Of a stretch of DNA of 64,000 bases, positions 6,856 to 53,208 are shown one piece after another. Position 1 is the first letter of the stretch. Each line of letters begins with the position of its first letter. The translations under genes were made by a program, and so were the position numbers. The DNA is taken from the sequence record PQ850593.1. The stretch is one strand, 5' to 3'. Origin of the DNA: Escherichia phage AidaStucki_Bas93. The notes under the pieces are model-generated. The model did not search any database and was not told the DNA's origin. It saw only the letters and a program-made list of their open reading frames with translations.

Positions 6856-6868
6856 TGTAATGTATATT
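6856..6868 (+). promoter_or_regulatory. candidate phage promoter motif GTAATGTATATTC
   Basis: TAATGTATA core about 35 nt upstream of the 6900 start codon; same core recurs upstream of other genes. Confidence 0.4.
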
Positions 6869-49994: not shown

Positions 49995-52025
49995 TTAACC
50001 TCTATTCAATGAACATTTAGGAGAATTACAATAAACTTGATTCATAGAACCAAGCGTACAACTTTCAGCATCGCGCCACGGAATCTGCTTAAAACACCCT
50101 GAGCAGTAGCCGAGGGTTGACCACATTGCTTTGGTGAAGTCAGTGCTTCGATTTCCGTCGAAGCTGACAACAGTTTTGCGGAGAGCTGTTCGTGATTCAG
50201 GAAACACACCTGCTTTCTCAGCAGGTTCCTCCTTTTTTGGCTTAGTTGAGATTGCAAAAATACTGTTGCTACGTTTCTCAACATAAGCATCAACAACATC
50301 CTCCAGAGTAATGCCTGTCTGTTTCGCTGAGGAAGGTAATACAGTCATACGACCAATCATATCTTCAGTTACACGTAAAGCAAATTCAGGACGACGGGCG
50401 TTTGTTGTATCTGTTGCTTTAATCCAGACATAACCATCTTTGATCGTAGCATTAGATACTTTCTTCTTTATATCTACAGCGCAGACTTTACAGATGTCTT
50501 CACCACGAAGACGACTGAGTTCATCATCAAACTCGTTCTCTGTTTTAACTTCACCACAGATTTCACAAACACCAATAGGAGTTTCCTCCTCTTCTTCATC
50601 TTTAGGCTTAGTCAAACCTTCCAGACATTCAGGGTGCCAGTAGCATTGATATGCGAAGACTGCTTTAGGTGCATCCTTCCAATCAATGTGTTTATCACAA
50701 CCGCCACAATCACCATGAGAATGTGCTTCCCAGAATTTACGAGTGATAGTAACGCCATTCTTGTTGACGAAACTATCATTCATATCAAAAGGGATATCAT
50801 CATCAAAGTCAGCAGTAGTTGACTCAGGCTCCTTTTTCTCCAGAGATGGGTCAACAAAACGACCTGCTGTGATCACTAAACGAACCATAGCATTAACTTC
50901 GGAGATACAGGATACTGTCCCACGGTAAACAATTTTAGGGTCTTTCAGGGCATCCTGATAAGCCTTAATGTCTACGTTATGAACATCACCTTCGATATAC
51001 TCTTGAGATTTCTCATCGTAGATATAACCAATCATCTTACCACGAGAAGGAACAGCACCAGCAGTTGCATAAGGGACAAACTCATGTGGTGTGATCTCCA
51101 CAGTCATGTCGCGGCGAATGTCAATGTTTCGATCGCTTGCGATTTTGTTTTGACTTACCACTGCGTTTCTTCGACGAACGTCTGCCGCTGTCACTCCCGG
51201 CTTCGTGTCGTAAGGATTGCTTGTACTGCTTTTTGAGGAACTTTGATAGTTGCTTTGGCTGTAGTTGTTCGAGTAGTAATTGCCCCAACGATTGATTACC
51301 GTAAAAACCGGAAGCTCGTGGGCGACCTCTTCAACTAGAGTCATGCTGTTGTTTGACACATCAAAGATGTATTCTGTACCAACTTTACATTCAAAGTGCT
51401 CATCAATGCGATTCTTGTGAGACCTAGAACGCTTCAGAATCCACATCAACATATCTTCTTCAGAAGCACCAAACCAATCTCTGTTACAACGTGCAAGATG
51501 GAAAGGACGCTCTTCATTACGGATGATATGAAGACGATTATCAGAAGCATCGTGCCAGATTAAGGTGAAAGCACCATCCAGCTTTTGAATAGTCTCTGCT
51601 GCACCAATAGTGTTAATAGAGTGGCAGATGTTTTCACTGTCTACCTCGAAGTTTTTACTGTCAGGTAACAGGTCTTGGTTCATCAAGGTTCCGTTATGAA
51701 CCAGAGTGATGTTACCGTGTTGGAAAGGATGGGCGTTCTTGGCGTTAACTGCACCTTTCGTTGCATGACGGCTGTGACCAACAATCCATGAAGGTGCTAC
51801 AGTGTAAGCTGTTTCACCAGTGGTGTGCTTCTTGTACTCATCTTTAAGGATGAATGCGAAAGAAGGAAGTGCCTCTTTATAAGTGAAGACCTCTTTAGTG
51901 CTTTTACGCTGACCAAAGATACCAGAGGAGTGCTGTCCTCGGAATACTCCAGCATAAAAGAGTTGGTTAAATATATCTAAATCAGTGCTTGACAGATTAC
52001 CGCCAGCTAATACGATGCCACAAAT
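49995..52025 (-). CDS. class-II (Ntn) glutamine amidotransferase domain fused to a Cys-rich C-terminal region; apparent non-AUG start
   Basis: frame is open upstream of the track's TTG start back to a TAG at 52029-52031 and begins K-I-CGIVLAGG (catalytic N-terminal Cys); AGGTGG sits 8 nt upstream of the ATT preceding the Cys codon. Confidence 0.5.
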   Translation of the reverse strand: MCGIVLAGGNLSSTDLDIFNQLFYAGVFRGQHSSGIFGQRKSTKEVFTYKEALPSFAFILKDEYKKHTTGETAYTVAPSWIVGHSRHATKGAVNAKNAHPFQHGNITLVHNGTLMNQDLLPDSKNFEVDSENICHSINTIGAAETIQKLDGAFTLIWHDASDNRLHIIRNEERPFHLARCNRDWFGASEEDMLMWILKRSRSHKNRIDEHFECKVGTEYIFDVSNNSMTLVEEVAHELPVFTVINRWGNYYSNNYSQSNYQSSSKSSTSNPYDTKPGVTAADVRRRNAVVSQNKIASDRNIDIRRDMTVEITPHEFVPYATAGAVPSRGKMIGYIYDEKSQEYIEGDVHNVDIKAYQDALKDPKIVYRGTVSCISEVNAMVRLVITAGRFVDPSLEKKEPESTTADFDDDIPFDMNDSFVNKNGVTITRKFWEAHSHGDCGGCDKHIDWKDAPKAVFAYQCYWHPECLEGLTKPKDEEEEETPIGVCEICGEVKTENEFDDELSRLRGEDICKVCAVDIKKKVSNATIKDGYVWIKATDTTNARRPEFALRVTEDMIGRMTVLPSSAKQTGITLEDVVDAYVEKRSNSIFAISTKPKKEEPAEKAGVFPESRTALRKTVVSFDGNRSTDFTKAMWSTLGYCSGCFKQIPWRDAESCTLGSMNQVYCNSPKCSLNRG

Positions 52026-52104
52026 TTTCTAATCCACCTGAAGGGTAAACCCTTTCATCTAATTAACCTTTAAATTATGCCCCTTCGTCAGAGGCACCCA
52101 TTGA

Positions 52105-53208
52105 TTACAGCGCTTGCTCTAACTGATTTTCCAGATGATCTGGAATATATCCTGTGATGTTGTTATCACTGTGTCCTGACTCACGTAGCAAGTCAAAAAT
52201 AGCACGGATACGCTGTTCTGATGCAGATCGTACAGTAGATAGGTCAGTTGTACGAAGCATAACCAGAATTTCTTGGTACAAGTTGTTAGCGTTCCCTCGA
52301 ATATACCCAAGGAACCCATAGAAGTCTGGAATAAGACGTAAGTCAACAAGGACTTCTCCGTTGGAGTCGGTTCGACGTAAACGAATACGACCAGACTGCT
52401 CTACTTCATGAGAACGACAATACAAAACATCACGGGCCATACAATACCCTGAATGCAAATCCGATTCGTCCAGATTGTAATCCAGAGGAAGATAAGGAAG
52501 CATTGGGGCAAATCGTACAGTATTTAAATGCTCAATAAACTGGTCATTGCTCATCTCTGCGTTATCTAAAGCCAGCTTCTTCAACATTAAGAAGCGGTTA
52601 ACCAGATTGAGAAGTTGACCACGTTTCCACTTAGGCTCGCTGATACGAAACTCAATTGAGCCGTATTGGGCAAGTGGCAGAAGGTTCAGAGATGTATACT
52701 TATCCCATGAACGAACCAGACGGTTGAAGAACTCTTCACCGTCGTAGTTAAATGCGTCAGAGGCGTTCATTACCTGTGCTTGTACCACTGCGAAAGCAGG
52801 GCAGAAGTTGCTACGGTAACGATGATAGCCTGAACACTTGAACAACATTTTTTCATAGAAGGTCCAAGCGAGGATGGTTTTCTTGAGGATATTACTATCA
52901 GCATCCCTCATATCCATATGAACGTGAGTAGAGCAACGCCAAGTCCCCTCGGCGTGCGATTCAGCTACTGCTTCACTCAGGTTGTTGATAGCGTCTAACA
53001 ACTCCTGTCCATTGTAAGGTCGTGAACATACCATTTCACAACCATTACGCAGGGAACCATCCTCTGTACAATCCCACATATCTGCTTCAATATGGTCGGA
53101 ACCTTCGAGTTCTAGTTCGATACCGATACCGCACTGAAGTGCAATTGAACTATGCGCCTCAGTTAAACGACCTTCTCGGTATCCAAAAGTTTGCGCTACA
53201 GTTGTCAT
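52105..53208 (-). CDS. candidate GS-like amidoligase
   Basis: GIGIELELEG near N-terminus and CSTHVHMD downstream; assignment needs profile search. Confidence 0.4.
   Translation of the reverse strand: MTTVAQTFGYREGRLTEAHSSIALQCGIGIELELEGSDHIEADMWDCTEDGSLRNGCEMVCSRPYNGQELLDAINNLSEAVAESHAEGTWRCSTHVHMDMRDADSNILKKTILAWTFYEKMLFKCSGYHRYRSNFCPAFAVVQAQVMNASDAFNYDGEEFFNRLVRSWDKYTSLNLLPLAQYGSIEFRISEPKWKRGQLLNLVNRFLMLKKLALDNAEMSNDQFIEHLNTVRFAPMLPYLPLDYNLDESDLHSGYCMARDVLYCRSHEVEQSGRIRLRRTDSNGEVLVDLRLIPDFYGFLGYIRGNANNLYQEILVMLRTTDLSTVRSASEQRIRAIFDLLRESGHSDNNITGYIPDHLENQLEQAL

Follow-up and report, generated by a model that had tools for sequence, protein, structure and literature searches.

How does translation begin on a gene in which no canonical start codon precedes the codon for the catalytic residue? 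The question is raised by the glutamine amidotransferase (GATase) gene of Escherichia phage AidaStucki_Bas93, which lies on the minus strand of a 64,000-nt stretch of that phage's DNA (PQ850593.1; hereafter, the window). The window belongs to a phiEco32-like podovirus (Gordonclarkvirinae, Kuravirus) and shares 99.5% identity with phages Bas92 and LAMP over the query. Mechanical open reading frame (ORF) calling, like some GenBank records (e.g., that of phage Paul), begins the gene at a TTG (51684..51686, minus strand) that we do not regard as the true start, and the ORF so listed, from 51686, encodes 563 aa. Direct reading of the minus strand confirmed the original prediction that the frame stays open for another 113 codons upstream, as far as an in-frame TAG at 52031-52029. 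This extension consists of an ATT and 112 further codons; with the AAA that precedes the ATT, 114 codons are open.

The minus strand reads ...CAGGTGGAT TAG AAA ATT TGT GGC ATC GTA..., where the TGT (52020..52022) encodes Cys1—the catalytic N-terminal nucleophile (Ntn)—followed by Gly-Ile-Val, and correctly framed homologues all open C-G-(I/L)-V here. No ATG, GTG or TTG occurs in frame between the TAG and the Cys codon; besides AAA, the sole sense codon there is the ATT at 52023..52025. The predicted Shine-Dalgarno (SD)-like AGGTGG is indeed present at 52034..52039, 8 nt before the ATT, with ATTAGAAA as the spacer, and the longest complement to the anti-SD in the window leader is AGGTG (5 nt). 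From these features of the sequence, the gene very probably encodes a functional Ntn-type (class-II) glutamine amidotransferase that is translated from the AUU at 52025-52023. Its coding sequence (CDS; 49995..52025, minus strand) comprises 676 codons plus TAA and is homologous to phi32_83 of phiEco32; the N-terminal peptide of the AUU-initiated form, after removal of Met, would be CGIVLAGGNLSSTDLDIFNQLFYAGVFR. The gene thus has the attributes of an AUU-initiated gene, i.e., no canonical start before Cys1, an SD at functional distance, and an AUU conserved in orthologues.

Is the upstream extension really the N terminus of a glutaminase? Alignment and a profile match to GlmS place an Ntn glutaminase domain from Cys1 to approximately residue 240 (51303..52022, minus strand). 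The domain profile matches the E. coli GlmS glutaminase domain (1xff) with E = 4e-9, and the Pfam models GATase_6 and GATase_7 score 56.7 and 30 bits, respectively, over cut-offs of 27 and 25. Cys1, Arg85, Asn110-Gly111 and Asp128 are invariant across the homologue alignment, the last three lining up with the motifs HTRWATHG, HNG and ETDTE of 1xff (GlmS Arg73, Asn98-Gly99 and Asp123). Cys directly after the initiator codon, the glutaminase residues and the family-model matches together characterize a class-II GATase, and homology to phage GATases from residue 1 bears out the earlier identification of the extension as the N terminus of such an enzyme. The nucleophile and the Arg, Asn-Gly and Asp residues are those of GlmS, PurF and AsnB; the acceptor part of the phage protein, however, is unrelated, a Cys-rich C-terminal region taking the place of the isomerase, phosphoribosyltransferase or synthetase domain.

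Catalysis pins the N terminus in this family and so allows its start codons to be assigned confidently. The original prediction held that initiation must occur on ATT since Cys has to be residue 1. Its conclusion stands, but the argument from Cys1 is insufficient by itself: in some Ntn amidotransferases, such as Bacillus subtilis PurF, removal of a propeptide exposes Cys1. What forces initiation on ATT is the in-frame TAG, which leaves no space for a propeptide. Relatives outside the subfamily locate the start independently. Six outgroup phages that we read (Proteus J3S, Cronobacter GAP52, Vibrio Vp_R1, Salmonella 7-11, Aeromonas LAh_6 and Pseudoalteromonas HP1), from three other families or genera, all carry ATG-TGT (M-C-G-(I/L)-V) at the homologous site. 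The position of initiation is therefore fixed; an ATG in relatives had been named as grounds for rejecting the ATT, yet the ATT is invariant within the subfamily, and its use there is not contradicted.

The region around the ATT is kept in 96 of 96 Gordonclarkvirinae records, representing at least three genera. Over the 62 nt at 52011-52072, identity is 100% in 68 GenBank records and a single mismatch separates the other 28; in the three of those that were read (SU7, KBNP1711 and EK010), the mismatch is a synonymous GGC-to-GGT change. Five IMG/VR contigs and several from metagenomes carry the same sequence. That the ATT is a misread or misassembled ATG, an idea with nothing but the rarity of ATT starts in its favor, is refuted by this recurrence in 96 independently sequenced records.

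Could the product instead be made only from the TTG at 51686, or from another internal start, with the upstream 113 codons untranslated or a decaying remnant? Such a start is what mechanical ORF calling delivers; the phage Paul CDS begins at the homologous TTG with an annotated ribosome-binding site, those of SU7 and EK010 begin at a later ATG, and the expected mass of the SU10 product, 63.8 kDa, is that of a truncated protein. We nevertheless hold an internal start to be highly improbable. For the 112 codons between Cys1 and the TTG, the ratio of nonsynonymous to synonymous divergence (pN/pS) is 0.04-0.23, and synonymous sites are near-saturated between genera (pS 0.6-0.73); by this measure, these codons are under purifying selection. 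Homologues align from residue 1 in 312 of 334 matching phage records. Moreover, a product from the TTG could not be a glutaminase, because Cys1, Arg85 and Asn110-Gly111 all lie upstream and would be lost. An N-terminally disrupted gene, the second option of the original prediction, is excluded by the same selection on codons that carry the Ntn glutaminase residues; with the sequencing error gone too, the rare AUU start is the sole survivor of its three options. As read from the sequence, then, the start codon is ATT, and the locus is neither a sequencing error nor a pseudogene.

Detection of the SU10 orthologue by mass spectrometry (9 peptides) also speaks for a functional gene, although it was reported against the truncated 63.8-kDa annotation and did not address the N terminus (PMC4281155). 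The spacing from the AGGUG core to the AUU, 9 nt, is rather long and counts against the assignment.

The start is in part already known. phiEco32 (RefSeq), LAMP and the Bas phages annotate the CDS from ATT; the orthologous genes phi32_83 of phiEco32 and gp83 of LAMP share 93-99% DNA identity with that of the window, and the CDS is 2031 nt long in phiEco32, LAMP and Bas92. A CDS covers the start in 9 of the 60 records listed and is missing there in 44; the other 7 have no annotation at all. The literature searched, which did not extend to the phiEco32 genome paper, contained no discussion of the AUU start codon. A single gene start is thus annotated in some records, while the recurrent use of ATT, and the shared junction and endonuclease link described here, are new as far as we can tell.

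One further explanation of the reading frame has to be considered. A nine-codon mini-ORF (ATG AAA GGG TTT ACC CTT CAG GTG GAT TAG, encoding MKGFTLQVD) occupies 52029..52058 on the minus strand, in the GATase frame, and its TAG is the stop that lies 3 nt before the ATT. Translation might start at its ATG (52058) and read through the UAG, and autocatalytic loss of the resulting 12-residue propeptide (MKGFTLQVD-X-KI) would then free Cys1. The shared frame, an AAAGG 7 nt upstream of the mini-ORF ATG, and the invariance of the mini-ORF in the subfamily would fit such a scheme, as would the propeptides known from some Ntn amidotransferases. However, neither a signal nor suppressor evidence speaks for the UAG read-through that it requires, and the six outgroups read are Met-Cys with no propeptide. 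Elsewhere, the same GGATTAG-AAA-ATT junction is preceded in frame by quite different sequence—a whole HNH endonuclease ORF in locus L252 and no usable start in L267—and in L183 two successive stops, TAG TAA, stand before the ATT. We therefore consider read-through very unlikely.

How unusual is an ATT start within this family? We pooled homologues from IMG/VR, GTDB genomes, metagenomes and six annotated phages and read the codon before the catalytic Cys. The pool contained 243 loci with 157 distinct N termini, which formed 124 clusters at 70% identity. ATG precedes the Cys in 132 of the distinct N termini, ATT in 15, GTG in 4, TTG in 3 and ATC in 2, and one lineage reads M-C-C. In no ATT or ATC case was there a canonical in-frame start upstream. 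ATT is found in 10 of the 124 clusters, four of which also hold ATG members (ATT/ATG: L095/L084; L252/L254 and L256; L044/L223; and Gordonclarkvirinae with L183/L192). ATT starts thus outnumber GTG and TTG starts combined, the reverse of normal usage. Well-supported AUU starts are otherwise very few, the E. coli examples being infC and pcnB (PMC3592434).

ATT and ATC starts also share a characteristic junction. The sequence GGAGGAT(T)AG or GGAGATGAG, followed by 3-4 nt and then the start, was found at 10 of 13 ATT/ATC junctions and at 5 of 125 ATG junctions (P = 1.6e-9; scored as GAT(T)AG or GATGAG just upstream of the start). Likewise, 10 of the 13 ATT/ATC junctions have a stop codon at position -7 or -6, as against 33 of the 125 with ATG (P = 5e-4). 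From the end of the preceding long ORF to the start, the median distance is 43 nt in ATT/ATC lineages vs. 1 nt in ATG lineages (P = 1.8e-4), where the stop codon of the amidoligase gene upstream usually overlaps the GATase start. A stronger SD that might make up for a poor codon was considered and rejected: mean SD length is 5.0 nt at ATT/ATC junctions and 5.1 nt at ATG junctions, and the SD therefore does not visibly compensate for the weak codon.

Where might this junction come from? In three of the lineages with nonstandard starts—L252 (ATT), L095 (ATT) and L050 (ATC)—an HNH endonuclease ORF ends 1-24 nt before the start. The matches were to Pfam HNH_3 and to phrog_374 (E = 1e-63) or phrog_6254. 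When upstream ORFs were scanned against endonuclease PHROGs, an endonuclease preceded the start in 3 of 13 ATT/ATC lineages and in none of the 119 ATG lineages whose upstream ORF was 50 aa or longer (P = 8e-4). ATT therefore not only recurs in the family but is also associated with insertions at the ATG-TGT junction. Inserts of at least two HNH families lie at or inside the amidoligase/GATase junction (L095:1000-1500; L252:78-590; L050:1063-1500; and L268, from Pseudomonas phage UFV-P2, 268-690).

Close relatives with and without an insert reveal the anatomy of the event. L084, which has no insert, reads ...CTATA ATG TGT GGA ATC GTT. Its close relative L095 reads ...CTATA ATG TGT GG|TAGTTGACA..., continues into the HNH ORF, and resumes as ...CCTAAA ATT TGT GGA ATC GTT; the element interrupts the opening codons, and a repeat borders it, ATGTGTGG at one end and ATTTGTGG at the other. 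The L095 element also carries a promoter-like site of its own, TTGACA-17 nt-TATAAT. In the second pair, L255 has no insert and reads ...GAATA ATG TGT GGA ATT TGG, while L252 reads ...TTTGT ATG AGA AAT..., the HNH ORF, and then ...CAG GAG GAT TAG AAA ATT TGT GGA ATC TGG. The L252 endonuclease has taken over the original ATG position, and the GATase restarts on an ATT 3 nt past the endonuclease stop.

The window has the same kind of junction. Its sequence CAGGTGGATTAGAAAATTTGTGG is identical to the HNH 3' junction of L252 at 22 of 23 positions, although the two proteins are only ~35% identical, and L267 has this type of junction and an ATT start with no endonuclease. L183 is the closest ATT lineage outside Gordonclarkvirinae (60% protein identity), and its leader is homologous to that of the window. 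The ORF that runs through the L183 leader ends ...GED TAG TAA ATT and is related to the C-terminal helix-turn-helix found in two HNH_3 endonucleases, those from UFV-P2 (E = 5e-5) and L050 (E = 1e-4). With regard to an HNH scar, homology of the junction to endonuclease 3' ends is therefore present in the window, and an endonuclease ORF or coding remnant at the site is absent. A tblastn search of the ATT-lineage spacers for endonuclease remnants returned chance-level matches only, and none of the 96 relatives has an insert inside the 62-nt block.

The inserts resemble the free-standing homing endonuclease genes of phages (T4 seg, mob and HNH genes), which likewise lie in or between conserved genes beside a highly conserved target and likewise occur as alleles with and without the endonuclease in close relatives (here, L095/L084 and L252/L255). 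Unlike genes of the T4 seg/mob type, they are placed at the start codon/Cys1 junction, and the downstream gene restarts on an AUU from the 3' end of the element. We know of no case in the literature in which an element supplies the AUU that restarts the downstream gene at such a junction. In SU7 as annotated, a homing endonuclease gene interrupts that of the DNA polymerase (SU7_49, SU7_50 and SU7_51; L269:39150-40000 and L270:1-1601), and an HNH endonuclease, SU7_85, sits 2.6 kb upstream of the GATase; mobile endonucleases are thus active in the subfamily. In Cronobacter phage Dev_CS701 and six other T4-like phages (L271:1140-1240), the 3' end of a homing endonuclease gene, CAGCAGGGGGATTAGAAAATTTTTGG, resembles the GGATTAGAAAATTTGTGG junction. 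The match to this T4-like (Pseudotevenvirus) 3' end covers 31 nt at 87% identity (E = 0.03); we set it aside as a curiosity because the endonuclease proteins are not homologous, and it may be a coincidence.

What does the leader itself contain? A 58-nt block on the minus strand (52018..52075) is invariant; it takes in the mini-ORF, the SD and the ATT and reaches 8 nt into the coding sequence beyond. Within a 5.7-kb cluster that is ~71% identical overall, no exact match to SU7, KBNP1711 and EK010, three phages of the other two genera, is longer (56-58 nt); the block is the best-conserved piece of the early region but not a genome-wide outlier. Synonymous sites beside it differ at pS 0.6-0.73. 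The mini-ORF may be translated, to judge from its start and the AAAGG before it. Inside it, just 5' of the SD, lies a putative small hairpin, AAGGG-TTTA-CCCTT (52041..52054); the homologous leader of L183 has AGGGAT-TT-ATCCCT, with pairing kept. An alternative hairpin that would sequester the SD depends on four G-U pairs and was not relied on. The leader is unique in the window, a search for repeats of it being negative.

A GC-rich hairpin is predicted farther upstream, just after the amidoligase stop (52077..52097, minus strand). Its stem is compensatory between genera (GTGCCTC/GGGGCAC in the window vs. GCGCTCT/AGGGCGC in SU7), and the outgroups carry an analogous hairpin followed by TTTAAATGTAAA. 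Because it has no T-run, it is not a classical terminator, and it may be an element that stabilizes or processes the mRNA. An Rfam scan of 51800-52300 (E <= 1) returned just two sub-threshold chance matches, both on the other strand; the leader thus belongs to no known riboswitch or leader family. A sigma-70 scan found no minus-strand promoter at the leader, and the promoter motif of the phiEco32 sigma factor gp36, tAATGTATAtA, does not occur in the leader at up to two mismatches. Elsewhere in the window, perfect or one-mismatch copies of the gp36 motif TAATGTATATA are found at 6858, 23943, 33318, 33392 and 42835, where they probably mark middle and late phage promoters.

How would such a start operate? 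Following general bacterial initiation, the AGGUGG 8 nt upstream would hold the 30S subunit while fMet-tRNA pairs with AUU; deformylase and methionine aminopeptidase would then strip the fMet, exposing the Cys1 nucleophile. Because AUU is a poor codon against which IF3 discriminates, output should be low, and the enzyme may be made at an IF3-sensitive level. Part of the initiation could come from ribosomes that terminate at the mini-ORF UAG, 3 nt before the AUU; an upstream stop within a few nucleotides of the start is what a reinitiation junction has. The closest parallel is E. coli thrS-infC, where the stop likewise lies 3 nt before the AUU (UAA GGU AUU; UAG AAA AUU in the phage), the SD lies inside the end of the upstream ORF, and low, IF3-discriminated expression is to be expected (PMC3592434). 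Measured with a reporter in E. coli, expression from AUU was 6- to 8-fold lower than from AUG, and at the infC-type junction about half of the initiation came from reinitiation (PMC3592434). The phage differs in that its upstream ORF is a nine-codon mini-ORF and not a full gene, and no autoregulatory logic is evident, the product being an amidotransferase and not IF3. The poly(A) polymerase I gene of E. coli, pcnB, is reported to be translationally limited by its AUU start (Binns and Masters 2002, as cited in PMC3592434). AUU would keep both enzymes at a low level; unlike the phage gene, pcnB has no coupled upstream ORF.

And how would it have arisen? The comparisons suggest that the AUU, together with the SD-stop junction, is the scar of a mobile insertion at ATG-TGT, most likely of an HNH homing endonuclease gene. 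The insert would later have been deleted, its junction being retained and becoming fixed in the ancestor of Gordonclarkvirinae. The AUU would persist after loss of the insert because Cys1 must stay residue 1 and the start cannot move. We infer that an insertion left the AUU behind as a scar, which today serves as a weak, infC-like initiation site, possibly coupled to the upstream ORF. A stronger form of this proposal is tentative. It holds that at least two HNH families repeatedly target ATG-TGT, as the least mutable DNA of these genes, that they seize the original start, that the host GATase was restarted on the element's AUU, and that the scar has been turned into an infC-like, IF3-sensitive throttle coupled to the upstream ORF; as part of the same tentative proposal, the 58-nt leader may throttle a potentially harmful glutaminase.

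The main competitor accepts the AUU start and denies it regulatory value: it would be a frozen by-product of homing-endonuclease biology, either a cleavage-immune allele or a hitch-hiker of co-conversion, kept because ATG revertants would be cut and reconverted, or by drift. In its favor are the HNH genes that accompany ATT/ATC starts, the way the inserts are placed at ATG|TGT, the junction common to GATase lineages so dissimilar in protein, and the lack of compensation by the SD. However, the ATT has remained invariant in 96 genomes that have no endonuclease at the site, although a single base change would restore ATG, and the equal invariance of the 58 nt around it indicates that the leader itself is selected; in UFV-P2, an endonuclease stands beside an ATG allele. 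The invariance of the ATT and the whole leader in the 96 genomes favors a function, and we regard a frozen by-product as possible but not probable. The ATT may be retained for expression control, for endonuclease immunity or by inertia.

Several observations weigh against a scar that has become a regulated start. In UFV-P2, an HNH_3 gene lies between the amidoligase and GATase genes and the ATG is kept (PMC3890496), so that endonuclease insertion does not force ATT. The ATT lineages L048, L049, L079 and L184 show no endonuclease. The 79-nt spacer of the window has no significant tblastn similarity to HNH ORFs, nor does the window hold an endonuclease remnant beyond ~20 nt. Compared with the whole SU7 genome, the leader block is only the 14th-longest exact match (the longest is 236 nt), and its invariance could partly reflect mosaic recombination rather than selection. 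That invariance also leaves no covariation signal within the subfamily that might support the fold, and the minimum free energy of the leader (-31.5 kcal/mol vs. -26.0 for shuffles; z = -1.72) is not significant. To these may be added the comparison of SD lengths given above.

What surrounds the gene? The amidoligase gene (Amidoligase_2; 52105..53208, minus strand, from Pfam and PHROG scans) directly abuts the GATase start in most homologous clusters. The early cluster as a whole consists of a COOH-NH2 ligase, a hypothetical gene, the amidoligase, the GATase, two small ORFs and an ATP-grasp gene; phage papers that cite Iyer et al. 2009 assign it no known product, a modification of the cell wall or of a peptide being one possibility (PMC10580990). 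The C-terminal ~420 residues of the GATase (49995-51250, minus strand) have no Pfam match beyond the glutaminase domain. They contain three Cys-rich motifs (CGGCDKHIDW...YQCYWHPEC, CEICGEV...CKVC and CSGCFKQIPW...CNSPKC), which in sequence look like zinc ribbons or treble clefts. Cellular homologues are confined to 7 loci in 185,579 genomes, most of them on very short scaffolds that resemble phage fragments; the GATase family is essentially phage-borne. Short scaffolds in the Herbiconiux daphne assembly (L180-L183; 560-924 nt) carry GATase N termini like those of Gordonclarkvirinae and Grimontviridae, with TTG, GTG and ATT starts, and look like contamination from more than one phage rather than host genes.

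These findings have consequences for annotation and for the study of initiation. Most deposited genomes of the subfamily carry a truncated, catalytically dead GATase annotation without Cys1, the right product being 676 aa from Cys1, and Gordonclarkvirinae are widely used in phage-therapy work. With ATT about twice as common as GTG and TTG together, the family offers a natural series of AUU starts with matched ATG relatives for study. If the proposed origin is true, selfish elements could create non-canonical start codons.

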